A DNA stretch of 64,000 nt from a virus, in the IMG/VR virus record IMGVR_UViG_3300028840_006907, positions 192,001 to 256,000 of that record; one strand, written 5' to 3'. The notes under the pieces were generated by a model, which was not told the DNA's origin, did no database searches, and was given only the letters and a program-made list of their open reading frames with translations. How positions within the stretch are numbered: position 1 is the stretch's first letter; every line of letters starts with the position of its first letter. Below are positions 921-50,477 of the stretch, piece by piece. A program made the position numbers and the translations under genes.

Positions 921-1907
921 TTATGAATAGTTGTTTAGTAAATCATCAATATCGATTCCACTATCGTCGTCAATTTTAATTTTTGGATGGTCTTCTTTTT
1001 GGTTAACGACTTCATTTTTTAGATTTTTTGAAATTTTTTCAGTTTCTTTCTCATCTCCTTTTTGTGAGTCTATTTTACCTCCTTTTTTTTCAATATCTAT
1101 AACCTCATCTAGGTCAACTCCATTTTCTGTATCAGTCATTACACCTTTTTCTATTTCAAAAACTTTTTCTTTATCAATAGACCATTCTTCAACAGGAAGA
1201 TCTTCATCTTCAGTATTTTCATCAGGGCTGATATCGGGTACTGGATCAATTAAATTCTCATCTAAGCTCTCATCTTTTTTCTCTTCTTTTTCTTCAGAAA
1301 AGATATCTTCTACATTGACTGGAATGGAAGGATCTGCTATATCATCTGTTGATTCCTCGGCTAAAGCTTCTTTAAAAGAATCAGAATTTGCCATACTTCT
1401 ACCCATCTCTTCCATTAGACCTTTAGCTGCAGCACTTGTAGCATGACCACTTCCAAGTTTTACCTGTGCTTCCAATACTCTTAATTGCAATCTTATATCT
1501 GCATTAGCCCTAGTTAAATTTCTGATTTTCAAGGTGATTGCTTTCAAAAGATTATTAAGGTCGTTTAATTCATTTTGGTAGTTTTGGACTTTTTCACGAT
1601 CTGATCTTAAAAGAAGATTTGCTTGTGCCTCTCTATCCTTGATATTAGGTAGACTTTTAATAGGTTCTTGGGTTAAGAGAGTATCTTTTTTTAATTCAAA
1701 TTCAGCCGTAGAATTATTGAGAGCTTTCTGCATCACTGATAACTCTTTTTGTACTCGGATACTGAAATGCTCTACTTCCTCGATGTAAGCATGACATTCA
1801 CCGATCTTTTGATTAATCTCCGTAGGGTCGGGGATAGCACTGACGTCTATGTTGAATTTTATCTCAAGCAGACGGTCAAAAATTTTACCTTTATATTTCT
1901 CATCCAT
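921..1907 (-). CDS. hypothetical coiled-coil protein with acidic C-terminal region
   Basis: 328-aa ORF; heptad-like Leu/Asn/Gln-rich central part, D/E-rich tail. Confidence 0.5.
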   Translation of the reverse strand: MDEKYKGKIFDRLLEIKFNIDVSAIPDPTEINQKIGECHAYIEEVEHFSIRVQKELSVMQKALNNSTAEFELKKDTLLTQEPIKSLPNIKDREAQANLLLRSDREKVQNYQNELNDLNNLLKAITLKIRNLTRANADIRLQLRVLEAQVKLGSGHATSAAAKGLMEEMGRSMANSDSFKEALAEESTDDIADPSIPVNVEDIFSEEKEEKKDESLDENLIDPVPDISPDENTEDEDLPVEEWSIDKEKVFEIEKGVMTDTENGVDLDEVIDIEKKGGKIDSQKGDEKETEKISKNLKNEVVNQKEDHPKIKIDDDSGIDIDDLLNNYS

Positions 1908-1948: not shown

Positions 1949-2338
1949 TTATTTTTCTCCTAATTGAATCATCTCTAAAGGAATCGAATCATCTTTTAGA
2001 GAATTTACAAATTCTACTGTTTTCACATCCGTAACTTTTCCAAAGAAATACACAGATTTTATACCTACGGAAACTACTAGAATCATTTCATCGAGGTAAG
2101 GAAAATAAGTAGAGAAAAGGATAAAATTTGACATATCAGCATCTTTAGCACCAAATACAGCATCATGGATAGCCGAAACTTCCCATTTCTTATTTTTAAT
2201 TACCTTTTTATTAAATCCGTAAGACTGAATTTGTCTCCCATCCACTAAAACGGCACCTCTTTTGGGTTCACATATGGAGAGGACACTGGCTCCCCATGCG
2301 ATGTTGGCAAAGAATCTTTTCTCTTTTTTTGTAAGCAT
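1949..2338 (-). CDS. dCMP/cytidine deaminase-like protein, zinc-ligand cysteines replaced (possibly inactive)
   Basis: N-terminus ANIAWGASVLSICEPKRGAVLVDGRQIQSYGFN matches the dCMP deaminase N-terminal pattern; where PCxxC is expected the sequence is FPYLDEM; 94-nt overlap with the upstream helicase ORF. Confidence 0.4.
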   Translation of the reverse strand: MLTKKEKRFFANIAWGASVLSICEPKRGAVLVDGRQIQSYGFNKKVIKNKKWEVSAIHDAVFGAKDADMSNFILFSTYFPYLDEMILVVSVGIKSVYFFGKVTDVKTVEFVNSLKDDSIPLEMIQLGEK

Positions 2339-4524
2339 ATTTTTATGCGTTCTCCTAAATTTGTGTTTCTTCTGTGTACACTCGAATTATTTATGGCTTT
2401 TTCTATAGCAGAACCATGACCTATTACAATTACTTTTGTTTTGGCTCTGGTTATAGCTGTGTACAATAAATTTCGTTGTAGCATATTTCTACCAAATTGA
2501 TTTATGAAAGGAAGTATTATAAAGGGATATTCCTGCCCTTGTGCTCGATGAACGGTGAGAGAATAGGCAAGTCTGACTTTTTCTAGAGCCTCATCAACTC
2601 CAATATCTACGGTTTTTTCAATTAAATCAATGGTGAATTTACCACCTCCAACATGAATAACTTTTCCTACCTCACCATTAAATACAGCTAGTTCATAATC
2701 ATTTTTGATAATTATAACCCTATCTCCCCGTCGAATAATAAATTTACCTACAGTACACTCTGTTTCAGGTCCAGCAGGATTTAATACAGCTTGAAGGCCG
2801 TCATTTAATTCATTTACACTTAACGGCCCTTCGTTACGGGGAGTAATGATTTGAAATAATCTACGTTCGTCTTTAAATTTTTGAGCGATTCTTATTATAA
2901 AATTTTGAATTTTTTCTACATTGTTTTCTCTTATGAAAAAAACATCTGCTTTCGGATCAGGTTTGAATAAACTCAAATCAGTATCACCACTCTTAATTCG
3001 GTGTGCTACTTTGATGATATCGGATGCCTCATCTTGACGGAATATCTGTTCCAGTTTTATAATAGGGATTTGACCACAGTGTATAAGTTCTCTTAAAACA
3101 TTTCCAGCACCGACTGAAGGTAATTGATTATTATCTCCAACGAGGATAAGATGTACACGATTTCTTAGAGCTGATAGAAGTCTATAAAAAACTTCCTGAT
3201 CGATCATTGAACTTTCATCTAGAATTACAACATCTGTTTCATATTTATTATGCTCACCGAATAACCAATCATCACCTCGGAATCCCAACCGTCTATGTAT
3301 CGTATACGCCCTGTAATTAATTGTAGTCTCCATTTTCTTAGCTGAAATACCTGTAGGGGCCATACAGGTCAGGTCTAGTTTTAGGCGCTTTATGAGGCTT
3401 ACAACGGCCTTTAACACTGTAGTTTTTCCCGCACCGGGAAGTCCTGTAATAACAAAAACTTTTTTCTCTACAAAATAATAAAGTGCTTTCCTTTGCTCCT
3501 CACTTAATGTAAAGCCGTTTTCGTGTTCAAATTGAGTGATGTGTTCATCAACCGATTTTCGATTCAGAAAAATAAGATCTGATTCTTTTTTAATAATTTT
3601 ACATATTTTTGATGCTGACAAGACTTCAGACATATAACATGATTTTGAGTATAATGATCCTAAATCTTTTACAATTTTCTGATCATCAATAAGATGTTTA
3701 ATATGAATTAAAATATCTGTTACGGTTATGGTTTTCTTATCTATAAAGGTTGTGTTTGTCTCTCGACTGAATCTGTTGATAAGATCTACTGTGTCTTCAA
3801 TGGTAAGAAAAAGATGACCATTGGCAGGACAAAGGACATTTAATGAGTATAATATAAATGCTACTAATCTTGTTGGATCATTTTCTGGAATCCCTAATTG
3901 CCGTGCTATAAAATCAGCAGTACTAAAACCGAATCCTTCTATTTCTGTAAGAAGATACGGATTTTCTCTGATTCTTTCTTCAGCTTCGAGTCCACCTCCA
4001 AAATATCTGAGGATTTTTTTAACTCTTCTTTCTCTAATGCCAAGTGAATTTAAAAAGGCTCTTAAACTATAATCTTGACGCTCTTTCTTCCAGCGATTTC
4101 GGTTAGTTACCCAGGCTTCTGCCAGACTTTCAGCGGAAATTTTACCTATACCTTCAACTTCAATTAAACGAGCTGGTTCAGTATCGAGAACAGTGATAGT
4201 CTCACTGCCAAAATGTTTAACAATTGCCTGAGCCCTTTCGGGTCCTATATTAGGGGATATTGCACCTATAAATAATTCAATACTTTTTATTTCTTCAACA
4301 TTATGGGAAATCGTGAATGAAGTAACTTTGAAATTAGTTCCATACTTATGATGCTTTTTATAATCACCATGGAAATTAGCGACAGTACCACTAACTACTT
4401 CAGGGCCGAATTCACCGATAACAGTAATAACTGGTCCAGATGGTATCCTGACCTTCATTACTTTGAATCCGGATTCTTCATTTTGGAAGATAATTCTTTT
4501 TACTGTACCTTTAACTGTTTCCAA
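2245..4524 (-). CDS. RecD-like SF1 ATP-dependent DNA helicase
   Basis: 759 aa; Walker A GLPGAGKTT, Walker B VVILDESSMID, C-terminal TRAKTKVIVIG-type motif of RecD/TraA family. Confidence 0.8.
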   Translation of the reverse strand: METVKGTVKRIIFQNEESGFKVMKVRIPSGPVITVIGEFGPEVVSGTVANFHGDYKKHHKYGTNFKVTSFTISHNVEEIKSIELFIGAISPNIGPERAQAIVKHFGSETITVLDTEPARLIEVEGIGKISAESLAEAWVTNRNRWKKERQDYSLRAFLNSLGIRERRVKKILRYFGGGLEAEERIRENPYLLTEIEGFGFSTADFIARQLGIPENDPTRLVAFILYSLNVLCPANGHLFLTIEDTVDLINRFSRETNTTFIDKKTITVTDILIHIKHLIDDQKIVKDLGSLYSKSCYMSEVLSASKICKIIKKESDLIFLNRKSVDEHITQFEHENGFTLSEEQRKALYYFVEKKVFVITGLPGAGKTTVLKAVVSLIKRLKLDLTCMAPTGISAKKMETTINYRAYTIHRRLGFRGDDWLFGEHNKYETDVVILDESSMIDQEVFYRLLSALRNRVHLILVGDNNQLPSVGAGNVLRELIHCGQIPIIKLEQIFRQDEASDIIKVAHRIKSGDTDLSLFKPDPKADVFFIRENNVEKIQNFIIRIAQKFKDERRLFQIITPRNEGPLSVNELNDGLQAVLNPAGPETECTVGKFIIRRGDRVIIIKNDYELAVFNGEVGKVIHVGGGKFTIDLIEKTVDIGVDEALEKVRLAYSLTVHRAQGQEYPFIILPFINQFGRNMLQRNLLYTAITRAKTKVIVIGHGSAIEKAINNSSVHRRNTNLGERIKICLQKKRKDSLPTSHGEPVSSPYVNPKEVPF

Positions 4525-4526
4525 GC

Positions 4527-6488
4527 CTACTCTTCTTCGTCAAATAGTGAATAACTTTCGTATTTTATTTTTTTGTTCTCAACTTTAGTTGTTTCTGGTT
4601 CCGGTTTAGGAGTATCTCCAGTTATACCTAACATCTCAAGGAAAATTTTTTCATTAATTACCTGAACTCCGTATTTCTCAGCTTTCTGGGATTTGTTTGA
4701 ACCTTTATCTTCATTACAAACCAAATATGATAAATTTTTAACAACGGAATTCTTATTAGTACCACCATTTTCTTTCACTAATCCTTGGTAATGCCCACGT
4801 GGATGTTCCATTGATCCGGTAAAACAAAAAGACAGTCCGTCCAGAATACCTTTTTTCTCTTCTTCAACAGTAATGACTTTAAGTAATTCTGTGATCTCAG
4901 ATTTATATTTGATTAATCCCATGACTACATTATTTGCTGAAATGTCAGAAAATCCTTTTAAGGCTTTTATATCATCCACACTTTTTTCCATTAAATTCTC
5001 TATTGTACCAAATGCCTTTATTAATTCTTCTGAGGTTCCTTCAGATATCCCAGGGATTCCTAGAGCAGATAAAAACACAACAGGGGTAAGAGTATATGTT
5101 TTATCAATATTATTCATGACTTTTTGAGCAGATTTTTTACCCCATTTTTCAATTACAGCTATATCCTCTTCTTGAAGTCTGTATATATCGAAAATTTTAT
5201 TCAGTTTCCCAGCTTCACTTAATTTGTCAGCTAAGCTTTCACCAAATTCCTCTATTTTAGTAACTTTGATCCAATTTAAAATTCGGTAGAATATTTTTTT
5301 GGGACAATCATCATTTTCACATATGAGTTTGATACCATCATTAAGAAGCTTAGAATTACAGCTAGGGCACTCTGTTGGGATCTCAATAGGGTTACCCATA
5401 TGAGTAAGAACTTTGGTTATCTTTGGGATTATATCCCCGGCTTTAACTACCATTACAACATCACTACGACCTATACCAAGTCTCTTTATTTCGGCAATAT
5501 TATGCAAGGTTGCTTTTTTAACTTCTGACCCATCGATTATTACTGGTTCCAAGTGAGCCAGAGGTGTAACTACTCCTGTTCTCCCTACTTCCCATGTTTC
5601 TTCATTGAATATTGTAGCTGCACCAGGGGGTTCGAATTTCCAGGCTATTTGGGCTTTAGGTCTGTTTCTGGTAACACCCATTTTTTTCTGAACTTGGTAA
5701 GAGTTCACTTTTATGACAGCACCATCAATATCGAAAGGAAGTTTTTCTCGTTCTACAGCTATTTTTTCGAAAGCATCTACGATTTCCTCTTTTTTACCCA
5801 CTACAGTGAAAGGAATGTTAAACCCAAGTTCATCAAGTCGTTTTATTTTATCCTGTTCATCAAGAGGTTCTGTTAAATCATATGCCATTAAGAATAGGTA
5901 TTTACTGAATTTTCCATCCAGTCTTCTACTAATACCAGAAGCAGCATTTCGTGGATTACTATATTTATCATTTTCAGATAAAACTGTATTGATTTCTTTG
6001 AAATGAGTTTTACTTAATAATATTTCAGCTCTAACAGATCCGGTAAAGTCAGGCATTTCAGATCTTAATACTTTCATATGATCTACATTCTCTTTTATAT
6101 TTTCCCCAGTAGTACCATCACCTCTGGTAATAGCTTTGACCAGTTTCGATTCTTCGTGATCAAGAGAGAGGCTTAATCCATCTAATTTATACTGTAAGAT
6201 ATAAACAGTATCAGGTTTGAATTTCGATGCCCACTTGATAAATTCTTCTTTACTATGTACTTTTTCAAGGCTACCCATGAATATACCATGTTTAGCTTTT
6301 TCCCAATGGGAGGATGGCTCATGACCTACCTTTTCAAAGTAAGGGTGATTAGGAGCCTGTTTTTTAACAAGTGCTCTTAAAGTATCATACTCTTCATCAG
6401 TCATAATTGGATGACCAGAAGATTCATAGGCTTTATCTGCAGCAATAAGTTTATTTATGCTTAATTGTATATCTATCTGTTTTCCCAT
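4527..6488 (-). CDS. ligA: NAD-dependent DNA ligase
   Basis: 653 aa; adenylation motif YKLDGLS (KxDG), Cys4 zinc finger CPSCNS...CENDDCP, HhH region, C-terminal BRCT-like LDGLSFCFTG. Confidence 0.9.
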   Translation of the reverse strand: MGKQIDIQLSINKLIAADKAYESSGHPIMTDEEYDTLRALVKKQAPNHPYFEKVGHEPSSHWEKAKHGIFMGSLEKVHSKEEFIKWASKFKPDTVYILQYKLDGLSLSLDHEESKLVKAITRGDGTTGENIKENVDHMKVLRSEMPDFTGSVRAEILLSKTHFKEINTVLSENDKYSNPRNAASGISRRLDGKFSKYLFLMAYDLTEPLDEQDKIKRLDELGFNIPFTVVGKKEEIVDAFEKIAVEREKLPFDIDGAVIKVNSYQVQKKMGVTRNRPKAQIAWKFEPPGAATIFNEETWEVGRTGVVTPLAHLEPVIIDGSEVKKATLHNIAEIKRLGIGRSDVVMVVKAGDIIPKITKVLTHMGNPIEIPTECPSCNSKLLNDGIKLICENDDCPKKIFYRILNWIKVTKIEEFGESLADKLSEAGKLNKIFDIYRLQEEDIAVIEKWGKKSAQKVMNNIDKTYTLTPVVFLSALGIPGISEGTSEELIKAFGTIENLMEKSVDDIKALKGFSDISANNVVMGLIKYKSEITELLKVITVEEEKKGILDGLSFCFTGSMEHPRGHYQGLVKENGGTNKNSVVKNLSYLVCNEDKGSNKSQKAEKYGVQVINEKIFLEMLGITGDTPKPEPETTKVENKKIKYESYSLFDEEE

Positions 6489-6805
6489 TATTCTCCCTCG
6501 TCGTTATCGGTGTCATCATCATCTATATCAATTAAGATGTAACTGAATTGATCAAGTGTTTGTAAAGAGTGCCCAATTAATTTTGTTATATAATCTAAAA
6601 GTTTTTCCTTTAAAGGATCTTCCGATTTAAGAATGGTATAAGAATCTAGTGATTTACCAAATACATCGGATATAGATTTCAGTTTAAACTTCACAGCATC
6701 TAAAACCTGAAGTAAAGAATCGTTGTTCTGTTGGTCACTATTAAGTTTTTCCATATACTCCTTAAATTTATCATCCCCATATTCAGGGTCATTATTATTA
6801 CTCAT
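6488..6805 (-). CDS. hypothetical acidic protein
   Basis: 105-aa ORF ending in a D/E run; start overlaps ligase stop. Confidence 0.5.
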   Translation of the reverse strand: MSNNNDPEYGDDKFKEYMEKLNSDQQNNDSLLQVLDAVKFKLKSISDVFGKSLDSYTILKSEDPLKEKLLDYITKLIGHSLQTLDQFSYILIDIDDDDTDNDEGE

Positions 6806-7085
6806 TTTTGTCTATTCCTTTAAAATTGATAGAAGCTATCCTATATAATGATATGGAACTAACAAGGGTTTTCGATAAGTAAAAAATAAAAAAAGTTTTT
6901 AAGTCTAATGGTTTGAGTAAGTTACAAGAGGTAATTTTAGGTTTAAAAAAACCATGTTTTTTGATAAGAATATATAATATAGAGTATAAATAATCCTGTT
7001 TTTATGATTTACTAAAAAAGTAATTAATATAAATAGCTATATGAATATGTATATATGAATATAGTTATTTATTTTTTCCTGAATA

Positions 7086-7149
7086 AGGAAAAGTAAAATA
7101 AAAAAGAACAGAAAAATAGTAGTAGAAGAAGAGAGGAATGAGGATTAAA
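7086..7149. repeat. 64-bp direct repeat, copy 1
   Basis: AGGAAAAGTAAAATAAAAAAGAACAGAAAAATAGTAGTAGAAGAAGAGAGGAATGAGGATTAAA, identical to 8187-8250. Confidence 0.9.
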
Positions 7150-7395
7150 AAAGATATAGATGATATAAAAAGAACCAATATAATGAATTTAATAGTAAAA
7201 ATAAAAATTTAAGTCACCAATATAATGAATAAACTTATGAACAAAGTAAAAATATAACCTATAAAATCTTCAAAAAAAGTTAAATCATAACCTTATTTAT
7301 TCGAACCAGTTATAACAAAAAAAATAAAACCTTAAAAATTTTACTTATCACTTTACCTTTCTAACTTTGTATAAATAGTAGGAGGTAAATTTGAA

Positions 7396-7770
7396 ATGAA
7401 CACAATTTTTATCACAGGTTTGGATAAAATCTCTATTAAAAGATTCATCCAATTTATTCTAAAATACTTAAATGATTACCAAGTTGGTACACTTCATTAC
7501 TTAATGAGTGAAGAGAGCATAAACTATTACATCGAAGATTTTTCAAATAAATTTCAAAAAAGGATCTTCTCTTACTTCTTAAGGAAATCAGGAGATTCTA
7601 TACCCAATCTTCCTACTTCAATAACTGATAGTGCTGATCTTATCATATGGTTTGATTTATACAGTACTAAACCAATAGTTAAACAGAGTAAGACAGAACC
7701 GCATATTCTTAAAGGGGCTCTTATGGATTGGGCAAGACACATAGAGAAATTAGAGAAAGGGGGATTGTAG
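7396..7770 (+). CDS. hypothetical protein
   Basis: 124-aa ORF preceded by strong RBS TAGGAGGT 7-8 nt before ATG. Confidence 0.55.
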   Translation: MNTIFITGLDKISIKRFIQFILKYLNDYQVGTLHYLMSEESINYYIEDFSNKFQKRIFSYFLRKSGDSIPNLPTSITDSADLIIWFDLYSTKPIVKQSKTEPHILKGALMDWARHIEKLEKGGL

Positions 7771-8160
7771 AAAGCCAGTTTGAGGAGGATATTAGGGCTC
7801 AACCCTGTTTGAGGACCACCGGGGCACACGAGGCCGTTGTAACGATGTAAGTCGGTAGTGCCGTGTCATTTAGGAGTTCGATCCAGGGGGATAGATCGTG
7901 CCATGACTCCTGTCAGTATACCGTCATAGGTAAAACCGAGTTACTCAAGATATATTATACCGGTCTGAAGGGTTCATCAAACATGAGAAGTTTACATGGG
8001 TACAAGCCGTTTCTAAGAGTACCTCAAAATTGAATTTTAGCTGTTTTAGGAAACAAAGCCTTACTATGCATGTAGTAAGCGAAATGTCGCAGGCTCGTGC
8101 CTCGCTAGTGACCCAGCGGGGATGGTGAAGACAGAAAGGTGCATTAAAATTGAGTAATAG
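7771..8160 (+). ncRNA. candidate structured noncoding RNA (family unassigned; strand uncertain)
   Basis: ~390 nt noticeably GC-richer than surroundings, no convincing ORF, long-range complementarity (GGCACACGAGGC near 7820 with GCCTCGTGCC near 8090), local hairpins (AGGAGT...ACTCCT). Confidence 0.3.
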
Positions 8161-8186
8161 ATGTATCAATAAATAAAAAAATCAAT

Positions 8187-8250
8187 AGGAAAAGTAAAAT
8201 AAAAAAGAACAGAAAAATAGTAGTAGAAGAAGAGAGGAATGAGGATTAAA
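8187..8250. repeat. 64-bp direct repeat, copy 2
   Basis: Exact copy of 7086-7149, 1101 bp downstream. Confidence 0.9.
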
Positions 8251-8376
8251 TAGTGAATTAAATCAATGAGTTACAGTGAGTGCTACTGTGTAATTTAAAG
8301 CGGATTTAAATTTAAAATTAGTACTAAAAAATACAGTATAGTCTAAAAATAAAGGACTATTTATTAGGAATAAATT

Positions 8377-8559
8377 ATGTGTAATGGTTTATCTATTAAG
8401 GAAGATTTACCTAAAGTTGATATCCATGTTGAGTGTGACTGTGGAGAAGAATTAGACATCGATTTACATGGATGGAGTCTGTCTGTGTACGGTGGACTAG
8501 TATTTAAATGCCCTTCCTGTGAGTCAGAAATAAAGACCTATATGGTAGAGAGTGTGTGA
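8377..8559 (+). CDS. small zinc-ribbon protein
   Basis: 60 aa with CDCG...CPSC cysteine pairs. Confidence 0.45.
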   Translation: MCNGLSIKEDLPKVDIHVECDCGEELDIDLHGWSLSVYGGLVFKCPSCESEIKTYMVESV

Positions 8560-9367
8560 TACAGTTATGTGGAAACAAGATATAATACATGAGTTATTTA
8601 AAGAGACGATTAAAGTTAAAGGTGTTTTATACAAAATGGATATAGGAGAAGCTTATCCTCATGTCAAAGAGGGTCTCCCTATTTTAAAAGAATTCCTTCC
8701 AAAAACTGATTGTTATTACATGGGTACTCTTGATCTTACTGTGAAACTTATGGGTCAGTTTGAGAAGAATGCAGAACAAATGAAGTCAAATTATGATTAT
8801 GAAAACATACATTTTCCAAAGAAATATACTTTATGGGAATACTCTCTTCCTAAAGGAGGAAGGCATGGTATCAAAAAAGAGGCTCTGTATGTTTTAGATG
8901 AAGATAATAAAATATTCATTTGGCCGTTAATTTTTAGTCCAGAATTTAAAATATGGATTCCAGGTATGTATTGGGTATTTCTTTTTAAGAATCCTGCAGG
9001 TACGATGAAATTAGTGGGTCCAAATGATTTAAAAGAAGAAGAGATAGAGGATTTTGAAGAGACAGGACGGCGAGTTGTGTCTTATGTTCTAACCTTTTTG
9101 AAGATATTATCTTGTAAAAATGTAAAACAAGAAACCGTGACTTCTTATTTAACAAAACAGAAAAGGTACGGTAATAGACCTCTTTACCCTTATAAAATGG
9201 TGAGAGTTAAATCTATTAAATCGTATGAAGAGGATCCTGATTCTTCTGATTATGAAAACATTAGCTTCTGTCGTGGGCATTTTAAACAATATTTCCCAGA
9301 TAAACCGTTATTAGGAAAGTATACAGGTCTTTATTGGTGGGATCCTCATTTGCGGGAGGATGAGTAA
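8552..9367 (+). CDS. hypothetical protein
   Basis: 271-aa ORF, overlapping start with upstream stop. Confidence 0.5.
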   Translation: MCDTVMWKQDIIHELFKETIKVKGVLYKMDIGEAYPHVKEGLPILKEFLPKTDCYYMGTLDLTVKLMGQFEKNAEQMKSNYDYENIHFPKKYTLWEYSLPKGGRHGIKKEALYVLDEDNKIFIWPLIFSPEFKIWIPGMYWVFLFKNPAGTMKLVGPNDLKEEEIEDFEETGRRVVSYVLTFLKILSCKNVKQETVTSYLTKQKRYGNRPLYPYKMVRVKSIKSYEEDPDSSDYENISFCRGHFKQYFPDKPLLGKYTGLYWWDPHLREDE

Positions 9368-9372
9368 AGAAA

Positions 9373-10332
9373 ATGAAGTTACCTCAAGTAATTGGTCATG
9401 AAGAATTGAAAATCAGATTGATACCTCGTTTAGAAAAACATCCTGCAGGAGTCTTTCTCTTCTGTGGTCCAGCCAGTGTGGGGAAACGTACAACTGCTTT
9501 TGAAGTGGGTAAATCCATCTTATGCAAAAATAAATCAGAAAAGTGTAAGTGCGATTCATGTAAGAGATTTAATGAAGGTCATCCGGACTTTTTGTGTATT
9601 GGTACTGAAAGTAGAATAAAGGTAGCTGATGTTAATTCTATTATAGATTTTTGTACCACTGCTCCATTTTTATCAAATAGTAAAATTATTGTTATTGATA
9701 ATGCCCATGAAATAACTCTTGAGGCAGCTAACCGGTTATTGAAATTATTGGAAGAACCTCCTTTAAATTTTTCCTTTTTCTTAATTACGTCAAATCCGGA
9801 AGCAATAATACCTACTATTGTTTCCAGGTGTATTAGGTATGAATTTGGAAATTTATCCCGAGAGGAACTGACTATAATTATAAAGAAGAAATTGGGATTC
9901 AGTCCTAAAAAGGCTGAAACTCTGGGATGGCTTGCAGCAGGTTCTTCATTAGATATATTCGATAAGGCTGGAGAGTATTTAAAATATCGAAACATGGCTC
10001 TTGAATTGGTTTCGAATATGAAAAAAAGATATCTGGTAGATTCTATTGATTATATCGATAAGATCGAAAAAGGTGATTTATCTCTTTTTAATGATATGAT
10101 TGTTTTAGTATTAACAGATTTAATATTATTAAAAAATAATATTTCAGAGATTGCAAATATAGATAAGAAAGACAATCTTGTTAAAATAGCTGAGATTTAT
10201 AATGACCGAGCATTGATAGGAATTGTTGGGTTATTCAGTCAAGTAAAAAGATACTTGTATTTGAATATAAATCTGAATCTCTATTTAAAAAATGCTGTGA
10301 TAAAAACATATCCATTATTTAAGGCGGATTAA
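9373..10332 (+). CDS. holB: clamp-loader AAA+ subunit, DNA polymerase III delta-prime-like
   Basis: 319 aa; P-loop FCGPASVGKRTT, cysteine cluster CKNKSEKCKCDSCKRF typical of HolB/DnaX zinc module. Confidence 0.6.
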   Translation: MKLPQVIGHEELKIRLIPRLEKHPAGVFLFCGPASVGKRTTAFEVGKSILCKNKSEKCKCDSCKRFNEGHPDFLCIGTESRIKVADVNSIIDFCTTAPFLSNSKIIVIDNAHEITLEAANRLLKLLEEPPLNFSFFLITSNPEAIIPTIVSRCIRYEFGNLSREELTIIIKKKLGFSPKKAETLGWLAAGSSLDIFDKAGEYLKYRNMALELVSNMKKRYLVDSIDYIDKIEKGDLSLFNDMIVLVLTDLILLKNNISEIANIDKKDNLVKIAEIYNDRALIGIVGLFSQVKRYLYLNINLNLYLKNAVIKTYPLFKAD

Positions 10333-11297
10333 TGAAATATAGGGAAGCTTTAACTTCATTACGTTTTAAGAAGAATACAAAATTTGCTCTAGTTGGTAAA
10401 GAGAGTTATTTGAAAGAATATTTCATTAAAATAGCAAATAAAATCTATAATACTTATACAATAAAAACATTTTTCCCTGAGGACCAGTCAGAAGCTCTCA
10501 GTCTATTGAGATGCGATTCTTTATTTGAAGATAATTTTTTAGTTTTAAATAATTTTGATAAAATGAAGATTGACATTTTTCAGGATACTTTAAATACCTA
10601 TGATGGAGTAGTGGTTATTACTCTCTCAGAAAAAGCTAATATAAAATCGAGAGCTATCACAAAAATTTTTAGTGATTTAACTGTAGTTGAGTGTTCTAAA
10701 CTGCGTGAATACGGCAACGATTATCCTTTATGGATAAGAGGATTGATAACAGAAGCAGGTTTTAGTGCAGGTGATAATATTGACCAATTGCTTTTTTCTA
10801 GAGTTGGGCCGAATATGCATGTCCTTGCTCGGGAACTGGAAAAATTGTTTTTATTAAAATCAGAGGAAAAAGTGATTACTTCAGAGGATGTGAAAAAAGT
10901 CGTTGCAATATCAGCAGTAAGTACTGCATTTGAATTGTTTGAACATCTTTTAAGAAGGAATGTTAATAAAGCGTTGGCTTGTTTTTCCTCTTATTCGAGA
11001 AATAGTGATAATTTTTTCGAGATTGTGTCATTTATAGGTTCTTATCTTGAAAAGATGTATCGGATGATTCTTTTACGGGAGAGAAAATTTGATGTTAATG
11101 ATGTAGCTGATATAGTAGGTATACCTAAATTTCTTGTAAAAATGAAATATTTGCCGTGGGCCTTATCTTTTGGGAAAAATGGTCTCGCTAAAAAAATAGA
11201 TGCTATCTGTAATTTAAACATTCAGTTAAGGTTATTTAGGGGAAATAAAAAAATTCTCTTTGAGAGATTTATTTATAGTTTTTCAAAAGATTATTAA
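10332..11297 (+). CDS. putative clamp-loader delta-like subunit
   Basis: 321-aa ORF translationally coupled (TAATG) to the delta-prime-like gene; size and position fit HolA, sequence support weak. Confidence 0.35.
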   Translation: MKYREALTSLRFKKNTKFALVGKESYLKEYFIKIANKIYNTYTIKTFFPEDQSEALSLLRCDSLFEDNFLVLNNFDKMKIDIFQDTLNTYDGVVVITLSEKANIKSRAITKIFSDLTVVECSKLREYGNDYPLWIRGLITEAGFSAGDNIDQLLFSRVGPNMHVLARELEKLFLLKSEEKVITSEDVKKVVAISAVSTAFELFEHLLRRNVNKALACFSSYSRNSDNFFEIVSFIGSYLEKMYRMILLRERKFDVNDVADIVGIPKFLVKMKYLPWALSFGKNGLAKKIDAICNLNIQLRLFRGNKKILFERFIYSFSKDY

Positions 11298-12002: not shown

Positions 12003-15000
12003 ATGGAGATCGAGATGCTATCACCTTTTGGGAAAATTGTCTGGGAAGATCGATACGCGCTGAAGGATGAATATGGGAAATTAATTGAAAAAAATATTTT
12101 AGAAACATTTCGTAGAGTTGCTACAGCTATTGCTTCTAAGGAAAAAGACTCTAAGTTTTGGGGTGACAAATTTTATAAGATTATGGCAGACCAATCTTTC
12201 TGTCCAGCCGGTAGAGTCCTAGCCCATTCAGGTACACATTATTCTCAACTTCTCAATTGTTTTGTTCTCCCATTCCAGGATGACAGTCTGGAAGAGATTA
12301 TGAACACTGGTAAAAACATGGCTATTGTTCAAAAATATGGTGGGGGCTGTATTGGAGGTGAGAGTAATATTCTTACTAATAAAGGTGTTGTACCATTAAA
12401 AGAAATTGTTGAAGGAAATGATAAAGATCTTAAAGTACTATCTTTTAATTCTGATAATAATGAGATGGAATACTGTGATATTTTAGAAAGACATACAAAT
12501 AATTTATCTGGGGATCGTGTATTCGAAATTGAGTTCGATAATACAAAAGGCGGTGTTGCATCAAGAATAAGAGCTAGCGATTGGCATCCCTTTTTTGTTT
12601 TTGATGGAGTAAAGATAATCCAAGTACGTGCTGATGAGTTAAAACCTGGGATGGCTGTAATAGGCTCAACTGATTTAGGGGTAAATTTAAAGTATGATTC
12701 TATGGGTTGGTTATTAGGTTATATTGCTGGTGACGGTTCGATTGATACTAATAATGGGGAAGATGTACGTGTTAGGGTAGTAGATGACAGTGAAGAGTGT
12801 GTTAAACGTGCAGCAGGAATATTTAATACATCTTATAAACCTTCTAGTGATAAACGTTATAAAGTAAAAATGTGGGCTTGTGAGGTTTATGGAGATGAAG
12901 CTGGGATGGTAAAGGATGAGTTTGGGGGGTATCAAACTAGTGGTACAAAACATGTCCCGAATTCTATCTGGGAAAGTTCTCCTGAAAGAAGACTTTCTTT
13001 TTTAGTTGGGCATATTGATGCAGATGGCTGGTTTAATAAAGAGAAAAAAAGATTTGAAGTTTTTACTGTTAGTAATGAATTGGCAAAAGAATTAATAGCC
13101 TTAGCTGGTGGTCTTGGTATTCGGGCTTCACTACGTTTTAGAAAATCACGTAAAGAAAATGAGCAAGATGGTTGGGAAGTTAGGTATAGTAGCTCTCAAT
13201 TTTCGATTGATTTAATTGTTAATATTAGTGCAAAACATAACCCACTCAATGCTGGATGGGTTATGGGTACTATAAATTTATCTCATGAATGGAAAGATCA
13301 TTTAAAAAGCGTAGGTATTAATGTTTATACAAATAAAGCATGGAGAAAGTCAATTGAAATTGATGGTGTAAAAAGATCATTAGTTTATTGGTTACAGCAT
13401 GGTAAAGCTTCAAGAGAAACTGCTGCTTCTATTCTTAGAGTGTGTGGTGAAGAAAAGATAGCAAGTGCTGTTTTATCTAGCCAAATAGTACTCTCTTCAA
13501 AGGCTACAGGAATTTCAGAAACATTATATGATCTCACTATTGCAAAAAATCAAACATATATGGCATCAGACCCAACTACAGGGGCTTATGTTGTTGTGCA
13601 TAATACAGGATTTAATTTCAGTAGGCTCAGACCATCAGGTTCATATATAAAAGGTGTCAATGGTCGTAGTAGTGGACCCATCGGATTTATTAGCATGATG
13701 TCAACTATCTCAGAAATAATTGAACAAGGCGGGACCCGCAGGGGCGCGTCAATAGGGCTTCTTGAGGCATGGCACCCTGATTTATGGGAGTTTGTTTCTT
13801 ATAAAACTGAACATAATTGGGAATGTCTTCGAGAATTTATTGATGTGAATGATTACGATAAATGGGAATCATTTAAATATGAAAATTTATATAAATGGCA
13901 AATGTTCAATGTCTCTGTAGGAATTACTGATGATTTCTTAGAATCTGTTAAAAACAATAAGGAATGGGTATTTAATTGGAAAGGGGAAGAGTGGGAACTT
14001 TATACCGTTATTTTTAAGAAATATATAAGTGAAGGTAATTACAAAGAATTAACATTTGAAGTTACAGCTAACAATGATCCTACTGCTATATGGAAAGTAA
14101 GAAAGAAAATACCTTATCCTACTGGTAGTGATATATTTGAAGTTACATCAAAAAGAAAAGTAAAAGCTTCCGAGATCTGGGATAGACTGTGTTATAATGC
14201 CTGGGCTGATGGATGTCCGGGCATTATCAATTTAAGTACTGCTCGTAGGATGCATAATTTAGAATATGCCTTCCCTATAGAAGCTACTAATCCTTGTTTT
14301 ACTGGAGATTGTAAATTGGATACTATCAATGGTCCTATGACTTTTGAAAGTCTTGAGGATAAAGAAATTGATCTTAAAACTCCATATGGTTCTATTGAAA
14401 AAGGTAGAATTTGGAAAACAGGGGTAAAATCTACTATCAGATTAAAATTTAATGATGGTAGTTCAATAACGGTTACTCCCGATCAACTATTTTTGTGTCA
14501 TAAAGGAAAAGAGATACGGGCTAAGGATTGTTTAAATAAATGTTTAAATACTTCGGATATACCGTTAAGTGTAGTTTCAATAGAGGATAATGGTGAACAA
14601 GAGGTCTATGATTTTTCAATCCCATGTAATTGGGGTATAGTTAATGGAATAGTGGCTCATAATTGTGGGGAGCAACCTTTAGGGGGATTTAGTTCTTGCA
14701 ATTTGTCAAGCATACTCCTTCCTAATTTTGTTATAGAGGATACCAAATCAGTTGATTGGGATAAACTTAAAGAGGTTGTTCATACTGCTGTCAGATTTTC
14801 GGATAATGTTGTAGATAATTGTGAATTTCCGATTCCGGAAATTAAAGATAAAGCATATCAGGAAAGACGTGTCGGACTAGGTACTATGGGAGTTCATGAC
14901 ATGTTAATCAAAATGGGACTAGATTATGATAGTGATGTGGGTCGTGATGCTGTGGAAGAGGTATTAAGATTTATTCGGGATGAAGCTTATAAAGCATCAA

Positions 15001-16085
15001 TTAAAATTGCGGAAGAGAAGGGGTCTTTTCCAGCCTTTAAAAAGAAAGAAATTTTAAAGAGTGGGTTTATAAAAACACTTCCACCAGAGATCGTAAAATT
15101 GATTGGGAAAAATGGTATTAGAAATAGTGCCCTTTTATCCCAGGCACCCACAGGATCGATCTCAGCGTTAAATAACGTTTCATCTGGGTGTGAACCATGG
15201 TATTCATTATCCTTCCAAAGAAACACTCGTTTGGGTTCCTATGAAGATGGTTGTCCAACTTATATTGAATGGAAGAAAAATAACCCCGAAGCTCCCATAC
15301 CATCCTATTTTAAAACAGCTCCAGAAATAAGCCCTACAGATCACGTAAAAATGCTTATTCTTTTTAGTAAATACATTGATTCAGCGGTGAGTAAGACAGT
15401 TAATCTCCCAAATCATACAACAGTAGATACAGTTAAAGAGACATTTATTTATGCTATGGAAAATGGTGTAAAAGGTCTGACTGTTTTTCGGGATGGTTCT
15501 AAAGAAGGTGTTTTAGTAAATAAACAAAACAAGAAAAAAATTGAAGAAATAATTCCATATACAGATAAAGAAGATTGTTATGAAAATGTAATGTCTCCTA
15601 AAAAGCGGGGAGATAAAACAACTGGTTCAACATATCGTATTCATATGCAAAGTCATAATTTATATGTTACAGTTAATCGAAATAGAGATGGTGATTTAGT
15701 AGAGCTTTTTACTACAGTTGGAGAGAGTAAAAAACCTAATGCACATCATACTAGTGGTGTTGAAGATTCCTGGGCAGAGGGTCTTGGTAAAATAATTAGT
15801 CTAGCTCTGCGTGCAGGAGTGAAACCTAGTTCAATAATTCGGAATTTAAAAAATATTCCATCAGATAAACCAGTATTTGTTACTATCGGTGATAATGAAA
15901 ATTCTGAGCATATACCTTCTCCACCTCATGCTATTGCTAGGGTAATAGAAGATGAGATGAGTAATGGTGAAGAAGAAATTAATATTCAAGGAGGTTATTG
16001 CTCAGAATGTGGCTCAACAAATACTAAAAAGAAGAGTCCCACTTGTTACGAGTGTTTTGACTGTGGCTACGTAGCTTGTGGTTAA
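12003..16085 (+). CDS. nrdJ: ribonucleotide reductase, class II (adenosylcobalamin type), containing two inteins
   Basis: Extein motifs GGG/TGFNFSRLRPSG and TNP/CGEQPL restored after removing two in-frame insertions; C-terminal Cys-rich tail. Confidence 0.8.
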   Translation: MEIEMLSPFGKIVWEDRYALKDEYGKLIEKNILETFRRVATAIASKEKDSKFWGDKFYKIMADQSFCPAGRVLAHSGTHYSQLLNCFVLPFQDDSLEEIMNTGKNMAIVQKYGGGCIGGESNILTNKGVVPLKEIVEGNDKDLKVLSFNSDNNEMEYCDILERHTNNLSGDRVFEIEFDNTKGGVASRIRASDWHPFFVFDGVKIIQVRADELKPGMAVIGSTDLGVNLKYDSMGWLLGYIAGDGSIDTNNGEDVRVRVVDDSEECVKRAAGIFNTSYKPSSDKRYKVKMWACEVYGDEAGMVKDEFGGYQTSGTKHVPNSIWESSPERRLSFLVGHIDADGWFNKEKKRFEVFTVSNELAKELIALAGGLGIRASLRFRKSRKENEQDGWEVRYSSSQFSIDLIVNISAKHNPLNAGWVMGTINLSHEWKDHLKSVGINVYTNKAWRKSIEIDGVKRSLVYWLQHGKASRETAASILRVCGEEKIASAVLSSQIVLSSKATGISETLYDLTIAKNQTYMASDPTTGAYVVVHNTGFNFSRLRPSGSYIKGVNGRSSGPIGFISMMSTISEIIEQGGTRRGASIGLLEAWHPDLWEFVSYKTEHNWECLREFIDVNDYDKWESFKYENLYKWQMFNVSVGITDDFLESVKNNKEWVFNWKGEEWELYTVIFKKYISEGNYKELTFEVTANNDPTAIWKVRKKIPYPTGSDIFEVTSKRKVKASEIWDRLCYNAWADGCPGIINLSTARRMHNLEYAFPIEATNPCFTGDCKLDTINGPMTFESLEDKEIDLKTPYGSIEKGRIWKTGVKSTIRLKFNDGSSITVTPDQLFLCHKGKEIRAKDCLNKCLNTSDIPLSVVSIEDNGEQEVYDFSIPCNWGIVNGIVAHNCGEQPLGGFSSCNLSSILLPNFVIEDTKSVDWDKLKEVVHTAVRFSDNVVDNCEFPIPEIKDKAYQERRVGLGTMGVHDMLIKMGLDYDSDVGRDAVEEVLRFIRDEAYKASIKIAEEKGSFPAFKKKEILKSGFIKTLPPEIVKLIGKNGIRNSALLSQAPTGSISALNNVSSGCEPWYSLSFQRNTRLGSYEDGCPTYIEWKKNNPEAPIPSYFKTAPEISPTDHVKMLILFSKYIDSAVSKTVNLPNHTTVDTVKETFIYAMENGVKGLTVFRDGSKEGVLVNKQNKKKIEEIIPYTDKEDCYENVMSPKKRGDKTTGSTYRIHMQSHNLYVTVNRNRDGDLVELFTTVGESKKPNAHHTSGVEDSWAEGLGKIISLALRAGVKPSSIIRNLKNIPSDKPVFVTIGDNENSEHIPSPPHAIARVIEDEMSNGEEEINIQGGYCSECGSTNTKKKSPTCYECFDCGYVACG
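12348..13604 (+). mobile_element. intein 1 with LAGLIDADG homing-endonuclease domain (419 aa)
   Basis: Starts Cys (CIGGESNIL), ends VVVHN followed by Thr; two LAGLIDADG-type blocks LLGYIAGDGSID and FLVGHIDADGWF; splits the RNR GGGxGxxxSRLRP motif. Confidence 0.8.
14295..14663 (+). mobile_element. mini-intein 2 (123 aa, no endonuclease domain)
   Basis: Starts CFTGDCKLDTING, ends NGIVAHN followed by Cys; splits the RNR NPCGE active-site motif. Confidence 0.75.
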
Positions 16086-35039: not shown

Positions 35040-38000
35040 GTGTCGGAAGTTTATCAGGGTGATTATGCCCCTAATTTATATAATGAGGAAAAGCGTTATT
35101 ACTTATTTCAAGCACAACAGTTGACAAATCTAACTGATGCTGAACTTCGTGATTTACATAATATATCGAACACGTATGTCCGTCGTACAGTGCAAGCTCA
35201 AATTGGTGATTGTGCAATACAAGATGGTTATAAAATTGCTGAGAATACTTCGGATAAGTCTAACAATTTTCTTATAACAGGAGGAAGTGGTACTCTTGAT
35301 GATCCAGGGATGTATTATCTTAAAGGATATCGATTATTCCTTTTAGGTGATATAGCCTATAAAGATCAAACAGATACAGGTACTATTACCGATGACGGTT
35401 ATACTAAAACTATATTACCTGCTCTGACAACGCCTACTGGGGTCACCTCCACTTTAAATAGCCTTTCTTTAAGTAATCCCACTCTTATCTGTTGTGGTGA
35501 TACGAGTGCTATTGCTAACTCTTCTGATTGGGGTCGAAATTGGGTTGATAGAAATGCTATGACATCCCAAAATCTAAATGGTTCTTCTTTAGGAGACGCC
35601 TCAGTCGGTTATGCAGTTGGTAATGTGGGAGCTGTTCTTCGTACAACTGATAGTGGAAATAGTTGGATAAATATCCGAACAAGTTTACCAACTCTACCAA
35701 CAAATTATCAAAATGTTAATTTCTTTGATGCTTATTTTGTGAACTCTTCTATCGGATGGATCACGGGTCAAAGTGGTGCCATATTAAAAACAATAAATGA
35801 TGGGACTAGTTGGACTGTACAGGGATCTGGTGTCACTACTTCAGATTTAAGTGGTGTTCATGGGACTGGATTAACTGATGTGTGGGCTGTCGGTAGTAGT
35901 GGTATGGTGGTAAAAACGACTGATGGTACAACCTGGTCTCAACAAGCTAGTGGAACTCTTTTTAATTTATCAAGAGTACATGCTATTAATACATTGGTCG
36001 CTTATGCTGTTGGTAATAGCGGTACTATAATAAAAACAACGAATGGTGGTACATCTTGGTCTGCACTTACTTCTGATACTACAGAAAATCTTCGTGATGT
36101 TCATTTCACGGATTTAAATAATGGTTGGGCTGTTGGTGATAATGGTACGATTACCCGAACAGATGATGCAGGTTCAACCTGGGATTCTTCTACTATTGCC
36201 AGTGTCGATTTAAGAGCTGTTACTTTTTATGATACCACAGGATTTACTGCTGGTGGAAGTGGTGAGATTTACAGAACTCTTGATAATACAAATTGGGTGA
36301 AATATCGTACTGATTATGTTTACATTGATTTCCATCTAGCTGAGGTTTCAGGTGATGCCACCTCAGGTAGTGAATACATAGATACAAGTTTAGTGGATGC
36401 GACTGTAGGTTATCCAAGTGCCAATAGATTGAGGGTGGTCTCTGATGTAAAAGTGTCTGAAGGGTGGCCAGCTCCAGCCGATTACACCAATACTGATGCT
36501 ACCCTTCAGCATTATATCGCTCCTCTTGCGTCAATAGAGCGTTCGGTGGGTACAAGTGATATAACTTCAGCTAACATCACAGATTTAAGAACTGTTGTTC
36601 GTACTATTGGTGAGATTGATGCTGCCCTTAAAGACGGAAGTATTGGTACTTCTGCAATAGCTGATGGAGCTATTACCCCTGATAAACTTGATAGTACTGG
36701 CGATTATACAATGGGATCACTCAGTATCTTGGGAGATTCTTCTATTGCTGGTGATTTAACTATAGGCGGTATATTAGTTGTTAGTGATTATAGAACTAGC
36801 ACTATCATGGATAATCTTGTGGTACGGGGATCTGCTCAATTAGGTGATTCAACAGCTCCATATGAGGATAGTGTTAATATTTATGGTAATATTACTCAAG
36901 TATTAGATTCAACTAAAATCGCTTATGATATACAAACATCTTCAACAACTGATGCTTCTCCAATAATTAAAATTGTTTCTGATAGTACAGGTAGTGTATG
37001 GCATGTAGAAAGTAAATCTCAAACGACATCGAGTCTTTTTGATGCTACTACACAGAATATGGGGTATGATTTCCATTTAAATCATTTAGGATATGAAGGT
37101 GGCTTATTTAAATTAAGGGATGATGCAAGTAACCATACCATTACTATATCTAAGACAGCTCCAGGATTTAGAGGGTCTGTTTTAGATGTTACAAGTAATA
37201 GCAATGACCCAACAATAAATATCGTAAACAGAGCTTTATCTGATTCAACAAGTTTAAGTATTGACCAGACTCATGGGACCATGATTACTTTGAATACGTT
37301 GGGTGATGCTTCTGGTATCGATATTTATTCACAAGGCTCTGGAAGAGACCTACATATAGATCATTCAGGTACTTTAGGAATAGCTGTAGATATTACTAGT
37401 TCCAGTGCACAGGTTGCAATGAATCTTGTAAATCAGATGGGACCTGCTGTAGTAATAACTCAGAATGGTGATGATGAAGCTCTGTTGGTTTTAAATAAAG
37501 ATTCTACAACCTTAGGAAGAGCTTTAGAGATTAACCATAGAGGTAGTGATGTTGGATTAGGTGTTTATAATACTGGTACTGGAATGGGTCAGCTAATTTC
37601 ACATGTAGGTGATTCTACTCATCCTGCATTAGATATTTATGTAGCAGGGAATGAAAAAGGTCCAGCTCTTCGTATAAATAAGGCAAATGATGAAACTGGT
37701 GAAGGTATAAGAGTATGGAATCAAGGTTTTAGCGAATCCTTAAGATTAATTCAGGATAGAACCGATTCCTCAGCTACAGTACTTTTAATTGAAAGCCAGA
37801 GTATTGGTTATGATGTTAGCTCTAGTAATTGGAATATAGATAGCTCAGGTAATATTTATACCGCTGGAAGTATTACTTCTGATTCTACTGCTACTGTAAC
37901 AAGTTCTAAATTTGCTTTTGATAGTACTTATTATATGACTTCTACAGGGATGTATCTTGATAACAGTGGCTATGATTCCTCTAATCCTGCTGTAGCTGGT

Positions 38001-49955: not shown

Positions 49956-50032
49956 GAGAAAATAGCTCAGTTGGTCAGAGCGCGAGATTTAGGTTCTTGA
50001 AGTCTTCGGTTCAATTCCGAATTTTCTTACCA
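49956..50032 (+). tRNA. tRNA, predicted anticodon UAG (Leu-type) with short variable loop and encoded CCA
   Basis: Cloverleaf: acceptor GAGAAAA/TTTTCTT, D arm GCTC-AGTTGGTCA-GAGC, anticodon arm CGAGA-TTTAGGT-TCTTG, 5-nt variable loop, T arm TTCGG-TTCAATT-CCGAA, A73, CCA. Confidence 0.75.
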
Positions 50033-50249
50033 TAAAATTAGCACCTTCAACTTGTGCAGAACTACTTAAACCAAGAAATAAAAGTCAGACATTCTAATTA
50101 TTAGGGCGTACATGGCGTTAAAACCATGCTTCCTGCAGAAATCAGGAAGCAATCTCTGGGCCAAGGCTCAGGGGCGCACTGATGACTTATGTCTGACTTA
50201 ATATAGATTGTAAAGTGTTGTAAAATAAATTTGATCTTTGAAAATTATA

Positions 50250-50429
50250 GGATAATGCCTTCTAACCTGTTGGGCTTACAAATTTTACTGGTTCGACTCC
50301 AGGTTCCGCCTCTCGGTCCTTTTGTAAAGATTGTAAAGGATCAGGAGGCGGAACAAGCCGGGTGGTCTGGCGATTGAATGCAAATCAATTTATTTGAAAT
50401 TAACGCTCTTTTAACTTGGGCATTTATCC
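50250..50429 (+). ncRNA. tRNA-mimic structured RNA unit 1 (Y RNA / YrlA-like candidate)
   Basis: Outer stem GGATAATGCC/GGCATTTATCC then T-run; T-arm-like GGTTCGACTCC; long hairpin GTTCCGCCTC...GAGGCGGAAC; D-arm-like GCCGGGTGGTCTGGC; hairpin ATTGA-ATGCAAA-TCAAT. Confidence 0.55.
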
Positions 50430-50477
50430 TTTTTTATAGTAATTTATAATTTTATATAAAGTGATCTTTGAAAATAT

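Follow-up and report, generated by a model that had tools for sequence, protein, structure and literature searches.

A repeat-flanked cassette carrying a conserved small protein gene and a structured RNA of no known family in a huge phage-like genome

Why should a viral genome keep two identical copies of a 64-nucleotide (nt) sequence on either side of a segment of about 1 kb? The question is raised by a stretch of 64,000 nt (hereafter the window; positions 192,001 to 256,000 of IMG/VR record IMGVR_UViG_3300028840_006907), which derives from a huge phage-like genome of an uncultivated clade. The 64-mer AGGAAAAGTAAAATAAAAAAGAACAGAAAAATAGTAGTAGAAGAAGAGAGGAATGAGGATTAAA occurs there as a left copy (R1) and a right copy (R2; all feature coordinates are collected in Table 1), and the locus runs from the first repeat through an AT-rich leader, the gene of a protein of about 124 amino acids (aa) and a GC-rich non-coding stretch to the second repeat; we call the bracketed segment the cassette. 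A first-pass annotation had described the 64-mers as identical and purine-rich, and indeed they are 100% identical, with 86% purine and 27% GC. Their edges are sharp, similarity being random from the first base outside either edge, and the minimum free energy of both copies is 0 kcal/mol. When up to three mismatches were allowed on both strands, only these two copies were found in the window, compared to 0 expected from shuffled sequence; the possibility raised at first, that the 64-mer recurs at many promoters, does not hold for these 64 kb. Neither blastn-short nor a 20-mer scan found partial copies elsewhere in the window, which also contains no other family of short exact non-coding repeats; its remaining repeats are collagen-like coding repeats.

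All relatives of the locus were recovered through the cassette protein, at 27-66% identity to the window protein, and genomes without the cassette could therefore not be sampled. Comparison with these related phages found the segment 7150-8186 conserved in all of them. The genomic context is shared as well: in L006, L011, L015, L018, L019 and L022, RecD2, a ligase and a small open reading frame (ORF) run leftward, followed by the cassette gene, a gap of 350-530 nt and, rightward, small ORFs and the clamp-loader subunits delta' and delta, the left flank of L022 being without the ligase. These include distant relatives, namely L018 (39% identity, on a 143-kb contig), L019 (40%, 52.6-kb contig) and L022 (27%, 54-kb contig). 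Ranked by identity of the cassette protein to that of the window, L011 comes before L006, followed by L018 and L019 at about the same level and then L022, while the identity of delta' is 83% in L011, 75% in L006, 58% in both L018 and L019, and 28% in L022. The cassette and delta' thus rank the lineages alike, indicating that the cassette is inherited together with its flanks; it is a segment of 0.85-1.16 kb that is vertically inherited at one locus of an uncultivated, huge phage-like clade. No new relatives came from the GenBank phage collection, IMG/VR or a metagenome scan, and the window has no close relative among GenBank phages. Searches with the flanking genes yielded neither further clade members nor a relative with an empty site (one repeat, no cassette), and a scan of genome contigs with delta' returned bacterial holB genes only, with the RNA of the cassette at none of those loci. 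The nearest cellular relatives of delta' (L024-L103) are holB genes of Dehalococcoidia/Chloroflexota and Nitrospinota metagenome-assembled genomes (MAGs), at 25-31% identity.

These comparisons bear directly on whether the cassette arrived recently. Perfect identity and sharp edges resemble a fresh insertion, and recent duplication or the insertion of a bounded cassette had been among the explanations first offered. The cassette is indeed bounded; the insertion part fails, as does recent duplication, because every relative has this cassette in the same place and the phylogenies of cassette and flanking gene are in agreement. A mobile element that had left a long target-site duplication is further opposed by the absence of any transposase, integrase or recombinase from the cassette, whose sole ORF is that of the 124-aa protein. 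Alternatively, an assembler might have mis-threaded a small circle, and the cassette does make a loop in the assembly graph. However, the arrangement recurs across independent assemblers and samples: L019, L020 and L021, from three samples and different assemblers, are identical through both repeats. Furthermore, a single contig of L006 contains both copies, with a one-base difference between them. Since L019-L021 agree and the L006 copies differ, the linear repeat-cassette-repeat arrangement is real, and a recent insertion or an artefact, to which we give next to no credence, is effectively refuted by the comparative data.

Bracketing direct repeats were present in every lineage that could be read on both sides (Table 1); the L011 and L013 contigs are too short to judge the pair. 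The ORF begins 87-246 nt after the left copy, and the right copy follows 348-481 nt past its stop codon, just beyond the RNA; the edges are sharp in every case, and no lineage has a third copy in the DNA at hand. L015 is the same phage as L016 from another sequencing run, and its right repeat copy runs on into the downstream genes. In the case of L014 (1099 nt), the end of the contig runs collinearly into its start along the post-RNA spacer of L011, from which we infer a repeat pair in which this contig breaks, as that of L002 does. The repeats of the relatives are A-rich tracts as well and are unstructured, folding at 0 to -4.8 kcal/mol, which shuffled sequence matches. The R2 regions are orthologous, the window and L011 having AGAAAAGAAGTAGTAGAAGAAG in common, yet the repeat sequences are lineage-specific. 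This match within genomes together with divergence between genomes indicates concerted evolution of the repeats, which in turn means that some recombination between the two copies must act, and it suggests that the working of the cassette depends in part on its copy number or its physical form (integrated, circular or amplified). The strong constraint that had been proposed for the 64-mer is thus borne out as far as its identity is maintained, but not in the form of a repeated promoter, as neither a promoter nor a hairpin was detected in the 64-mer.

Concerted evolution could also act on repeats that do nothing. The pair might be a neutral leftover of an ancient event, either a dispersed duplication or a circle integrated through one crossover, that persists only because frequent gene conversion outpaces mutation. 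Phages proficient in recombination are expected to show conversion between repeats that lie close together, and the decay states observed (a single mismatch each in L006 and L018, with L012 at about 80% identity) fit a course of drift and renewal. On the other hand, the repeats persist in at least six to seven lineages, down to 27% protein identity, although they must lead to the loss of a conserved cassette by deletion, and the right edge of R2 is fixed beside a conserved element composed of the AAATCAAT box and hairpins. We therefore regard a neutral origin as unlikely.

The reading we favour, with a probability of roughly 0.38, is that the repeats are recombination bookends that permit the pop-out of the cassette or a change in its copy number. 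Exchange between the two copies would rely on homologous recombination over 27-64 bp or on a recombinase supplied in trans. An exchange within one molecule would release a cassette circle of about 1.1 kb with one repeat, an unequal exchange between sister genomes would leave 0, 1, 2 or more tandem copies, and re-entry at the remaining repeat would restore the repeat-cassette-repeat order. The payload would be a pair of RNA and protein, expressed early and probably linked to replication. Since each cycle of recombination would reset the copies, this reading accounts for their perfect identity, their sharp edges and the lineage-specific length and sequence; R carries no promoter, hairpin or DnaA-box signal that would give it another role. 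If true, it would represent a new mechanism in the biology of huge phages. A stronger version, in which the cassette with its origin-like leader is a self-contained genetic device that deliberately cycles through a DNA mini-circle or mini-replicon of about 1.1 kb, or through a unit-length and possibly circular RNA, with the RNA-protein complex starting or controlling replication, appears rather improbable to us.

Several observations weigh against bookends. The contigs contained neither an excised circle nor a tandem array, nor did any show an empty site (flank-R-flank), and the cassette carries no recombinase gene. Unit-length contigs that break in the repeats did occur in Logan, a set of assemblies of public sequencing runs made with k=31: a 1097-nt contig from run SRR6963591 (L002) corresponds to window positions 7120-8216 and breaks inside both repeats, a second contig from this run starts at 8221, and two further contigs are of the same kind, namely L014 (1099 nt) and L016, whose 1066 nt begin and end with the same 30 nt. 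However, these are not evidence of circles, because any k=31 graph breaks at a repeat, nor do they speak against circles or tandem copies. In addition, the cassette looks like a core, vertically inherited component, so its loss by pop-out should be costly, while genomes lacking it lie outside a sampling made entirely through its protein. Perfect identity is not obligatory either, since the L012 pair has decayed to about 80% over about 37 nt (p~0.014; 7/500 shuffles), and gene conversion could by itself suffice to keep any two neighbouring repeats identical, irrespective of what they do.

The cassette nevertheless resembles known repeat-bracketed cassettes. A precedent for bookends is provided by the promoter-early stem-loop (PeSL) cassettes of T4-type phages (Arbiol et al. 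2010, PMC2839356), where recombination between the flanking repeats generates mini-circles with an ORF and one repeat without a dedicated recombinase. PeSLs are multi-copy, contain a terminator hairpin besides their sigma-70 promoter, and are found around variable orphan ORFs in hyperplastic regions. Short direct repeats around a small ORF in a large phage genome are found here too; R differs in having two copies in 64 kb and neither a sigma-70 promoter nor a stem-loop, and its payload is a conserved, syntenic module of protein and RNA. The pair also recalls the attL/attR sites, in that identical, sharp-edged direct repeats surround a discrete segment and the length and sequence of the core vary by lineage. 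In Campbell-type integration, the attL/attR cores flank integrated elements. The cassette, in contrast, is about 1 kb long, has no integrase and appears to be vertically inherited, and no empty site was seen in the relatives.

We further considered whether R is a duplicated cis-acting control site to which an initiator, a regulator or an accessory factor of the polymerase binds, or whether the two copies bracket an origin or initiator in the manner of iterons. R would then be used ahead of the ORF-RNA unit and again ahead of the clamp-loader operon, with only a short core being functional and the long identity a by-product of gene conversion. Such a site is doubtful in its own right and yet nearly as likely as bookends. 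Downstream of either R copy, the next rightward gene always starts within 60-250 nt, although the distances from R to the genes vary between copies and between lineages. By eye, a weak common core, RACAKGAW..AAG followed by AAATAGT, can be read in the repeats of several lineages; it is missing in L022. The decayed pair of L012 fits a site of which only the core matters. As for promoters, we found no sigma-70 promoter inside either 64-mer, and promoter-like hits in the region number 7, compared to 12.2 expected from shuffles.

With regard to an origin, the locus is very AT-rich (19-20% GC), contains short repeats and lies between divergent replication genes. Iteron-like short repeats adjoin R1 (Table 1), and repeats of 26-44 nt stand at the matching relative position in L006 (330-404) and L016 (52-115). 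However, DnaA boxes are not enriched in the window (30 versus 23.8 expected), none of them falls in intergenic DNA, and the 124-aa protein lacks an initiator-type DNA-binding fold. The GC skew changes sign at the locus and becomes negative again at 42-50 kb, where the genes are on the minus strand; since the skew thus tracks gene orientation, it provides no independent evidence of an origin. A DnaA-trio reading of TAGTAGTAGAAGAAG in R was rejected, because the boxes are not enriched and the motif is missing in the other lineages.

Iterons bracket the initiator gene in the replicons of the P1 and F plasmids (incC-repA-incA); they are arrays of many imperfect 17-22-bp units that are bound by a winged-helix initiator. 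The likeness to these replicons lies in a small gene in a replication-control region with direct repeats of the same orientation on either side and AT-rich DNA nearby. The cassette differs in its single long perfect unit per side and its P-loop-like protein, as well as in its large structured RNA, which is missing from those plasmid replicons. Separately, tandem repeats of 34 nt and 44 nt occur near the left repeat in L006 (1-210 and 330-404) and at the contig starts of L007, L009 and L010. These arrays differ in copy number between samples of one phage (99.6-100% identical), and they may be iteron-like or may have been collapsed by the assembler.

The GC-rich stretch of the cassette is a conserved structured non-coding RNA of about 395 nt (Table 1). 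Its DNA has 48-49% GC, compared to 19-30% around it and 19-24% in the AT-rich DNA between the repeats, and in all relatives a block of 40-54% GC directly follows the ORF and aligns well. The earlier description of a GC-richer non-coding stretch is therefore correct: reading it as coding sequence was ruled out by variable sites that are spread evenly over the three phases (53/56/58%), by stop codons in all frames, save for one non-conserved reverse frame in L014, and by indels that are not multiples of 3. Across the clade, the RNA begins 0-60 nt past the stop codon of the ~124-aa gene. From seven sequences, RNAalifold derived a consensus of 86 pairs in 15 helices, in which 96.6% of the cells hold standard pairs. 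The consensus has 35 compensatory pairs, compared to 14.8 ± 2.5 in shuffles, with none of 500 shuffles reaching the observed values, and in a slid control, where the pairing partners were moved by 1-3 columns, just 2-6 compensatory pairs remained. The many conserved G-U pairs place the RNA on the plus strand. A sequence profile of the RNA (nhmmer) matches L018 (E 3e-29) and L019 (E 8e-10), and a covariance model of its 3' domain recovers both held-out relatives, L019 (E 6e-5) and L013, with no more than one copy in the window. L022 has a GC-rich block of equal size that is too diverged to score.

We found no match to this RNA in Rfam 15, using cmscan at the gathering threshold and at E<=10 on the window region and five relatives; the hits at E<=10 are chance hits outside the RNA. 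Specifically, there was no covariance-model match to RNase P, transfer-messenger RNA (tmRNA), group I/II introns, GOLLD, ROOL, OLE, HEARO or self-cleaving ribozymes, ARAGORN detected no tmRNA, and the RNA contains no tandem repeats. In the literature on huge phages we found nothing relevant on a described RNA or origin. With several hundred nucleotides, many helices, strong covariation and no known function, the RNA is similar to GOLLD and ROOL, which are phage-associated, and to OLE and HEARO, all four of which are Rfam families; it differs from them in matching no Rfam model and in its fixed place after a small protein gene and in the replication module. It is therefore a candidate for a new RNA class. 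Large structured RNAs of unknown function are, to our knowledge, a rarity, and every one so far has been biologically interesting; what makes this one significant is its strong covariation, its tie to a conserved protein and its fixed place at the head of replication genes. An RNase P-like reading by eye (GAGGAUAU.AGGGCU as CR-I and ACAGAA as CR-V) was dropped, as it had no covariance-model support. Retrons are recognized by an adjacent reverse transcriptase, and the type III toxin-antitoxin system ToxIN by tandem RNA repeats of about 36 nt upstream of the toxin; both assignments were rejected, as neither the cassette nor its neighbours contain a reverse transcriptase or a toxin domain.

The presence of an RNA also raises the possibility that the repeats act as RNA-level punctuation. 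A transcript that starts to the left of R1 and runs through R2 would be cut identically in both by a nuclease or a ribozyme, and the freed unit RNA of about 1.1 kb, comprising mRNA and structured RNA, could be ligated into a circle. Viroid-like RNAs are produced in this manner, greater-than-unit-length templates being cut and ligated into circles, and the geometry that this requires, one unit with a short duplication at its ends, is that of the repeats. R would be single-stranded if transcribed, a strong promoter-like site (TTAAAA-N18-TATAAT, 6820-6849, plus strand) lies to the left of R1, and no intrinsic terminator separates the ORF, the RNA and R2; indeed, a scan of 6400-8700, a stretch that covers both repeats, gave no terminator-like site. 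However, the RNA matches no known self-cleaving ribozyme or intron family, and processing sites do not need perfect identity over 27-64 nt. Moreover, R1 may fall outside the main transcript, because a conserved promoter-like motif lies to its right; this motif, TTTACTTAT ... GTATAAATAG, is kept in the window, L006 and L011-L015 as judged by eye and was not called by the sigma-70 scan. We consider punctuation of this kind very unlikely. Base-pairing between R and the cassette is at chance level, the best complement being 9 nt, and is inconsistent across lineages.

The cassette gene is conserved as well. In agreement with the first-pass annotation, which had noted a small ORF with a ribosome-binding site (RBS), it is preceded by AGGAGG, its homologues at 52-66% identity are found on short metagenomic contigs, and its variable sites follow codon periodicity (56/42/86% by codon position). 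The protein is encoded on the 388,651-bp contig Ga0180437_10000019 (JGI), which includes the window, and on a contig of 469,617 bp. An exhaustive profile search returned 76 cluster representatives, nearly all of 67-162 aa and most of about 120-130 aa; two much larger proteins match over short stretches only. No match was found in Pfam, PHROGs or the PDB sequences. The predicted fold is alpha/beta and resembles that of P-loop NTPases, and fold searches returned generic P-loop cores only, with no DNA-binding fold typical of initiators. The family has a Walker-B-like hhhWFD motif (IIWFD in the window) and, at the place of Walker A, SPDK(I/L)S, the canonical Walker A motif (GxxxxGK[ST]) being absent. 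A weak, non-significant likeness to the N-terminal domain of RapZ may serve as a lead.

The constant adjacency of the gene to the RNA suggests that the protein and the RNA form a ribonucleoprotein. Adjacent genes for a protein and its RNA partner are known from smpB-ssrA (tmRNA) and from RnpA with RNase P RNA. As in those pairs, a small protein gene directly adjoins an RNA gene of 350-400 nt, but the tmRNA and RNase P models are negative here and the predicted fold is P-loop-like rather than that of SmpB or RnpA. Among the relatives of the cassette protein, RKY79490.1 is filed in NCBI under 'candidate division KSB1 bacterium'; its source is probably a phage contig that was binned into a MAG.

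Table 1. Positions of the repeats, the cassette components and the flanking features in the window and in related contigs.
Sequence	Feature	Position	Strand	Identical positions	Spacing or unit (nt)	Remarks
Window	Repeat pair R1/R2	7086-7149 / 8187-8250		64/64	spacing 1101 (start to start)	
Window	R1, left 64-nt direct repeat	7086-7149	+			A/purine-rich, unstructured; counterparts in L006, L016, L018, L019, L022
Window	Two exact 15-nt direct repeats ACCAATATAATGAAT	7174-7230	+			42 nt apart; iteron-like, just inside R1
Window	Upstream motif TTTACTTAT ... GTATAAATAG, then AGGAGG RBS	7340-7385	+			promoter-like, without canonical sigma-70 spacing
Window	Gene of conserved 124-aa protein	7396-7770	+			AGGAGG RBS at 7380-7385; homologues; codon periodicity
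Window	Structured RNA, ~395 nt, 15 helices	7774-8167	+			begins 4 nt past ORF stop codon
Window	A-rich spacer, last RNA hairpin to R2	8168-8186	+			A-rich spacer here in all close relatives
Window	R2, right 64-nt direct repeat	8187-8250	+			orthologous to post-RNA spacer of L011 and L014; common AGAAAAGAAGTAGTAGAAGAAG
Window	AAATCAAT box and two hairpins	8260-8311	+			right of R2, outside cassette, ahead of next gene
Window	Left flank: 105-aa ORF (6488-6805), NAD-dependent DNA ligase (4527-6488)	4527-6805	-			recurs in L018, L019
Window	Right flank: 60-aa Cys-rich ORF, 266/271-aa ORF, clamp-loader delta' (9373-10332), delta (10332-11297)	8377-11297	+			
L006	Repeat pair	258-321 / 1416-1479		63/64	spacing 1158	
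L016	Repeat pair	contig starts and finishes with same 30-mer		30/30	unit 1036	
L018	Repeat pair	4865-4913 / 5712-5760		48/49	spacing 847	
L019-L021	Repeat pair	4854-4902 / 5741-5789		49/49	spacing 887	
L022	Repeat pair	4799-4825 / 5738-5764		27/27	spacing 939	9 more positions past one mismatch

The locus lies at a strand switch, as had been noted: genes to its left are on the minus strand (the 105-aa ORF, the ligase and the RecD2 helicase) and those on the clamp-loader side to its right are on the plus strand. The gene order of the right flank recurs in L006, L011, L018, L019 and L022. Between R2 and the first of these genes, the AAATCAAT box and its hairpins are conserved in the window, L006, L011, L012 and L015; the hairpin at 8271-8293 (TTACAGTG...CTGTAA) is nearly invariant, while the stem at 8293-8311 covaries, and the element probably serves to control the clamp-loader operon that follows. 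By eye, the 8-mer AAATCAAT is found both directly before R2 (8179-8186) and 9 nt past it (8260-8267); this doubling, which is not seen in L006, may be chance in AT-rich DNA.

The replication genes of the window are of bacterial type (delta, delta', a gamma/tau-like subunit, a 5'-3' exonuclease and UvrD), and no capsid gene was seen in the window. In L022, fragments of an IS605-type OrfB/TnpB (PF07282, PF12323) lie at 1992-3106, between RecD2 and the strand switch. Further to the right, the window encodes, in rightward orientation, the large subunit of ribonucleotide reductase (12003-16085) with an intein that carries a LAGLIDADG homing endonuclease; inteins are also present in the orthologues of L019 and L018, two of them in the latter. 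Two giant ORFs, at 35040-42053 and 54251-63487 (2337 and 3078 aa), consist of collagen-like GGN-NNN-NNN repeats with a 9/18-nt period; they have repeat families in common, and their regions form GC-rich islands of 44-48% GC. Lastly, a direct repeat of 79 nt, 75% identical between its copies at 50232-50310 and 50462-50540, ends in the tRNA T-arm-like GGTTCGACTCCAGG and lies just downstream of the sole called tRNA (tRNA-Leu, 49956-50032). These 79-nt repeats may be degenerate or unusual tRNA genes that were overlooked by ARAGORN and Rfam.

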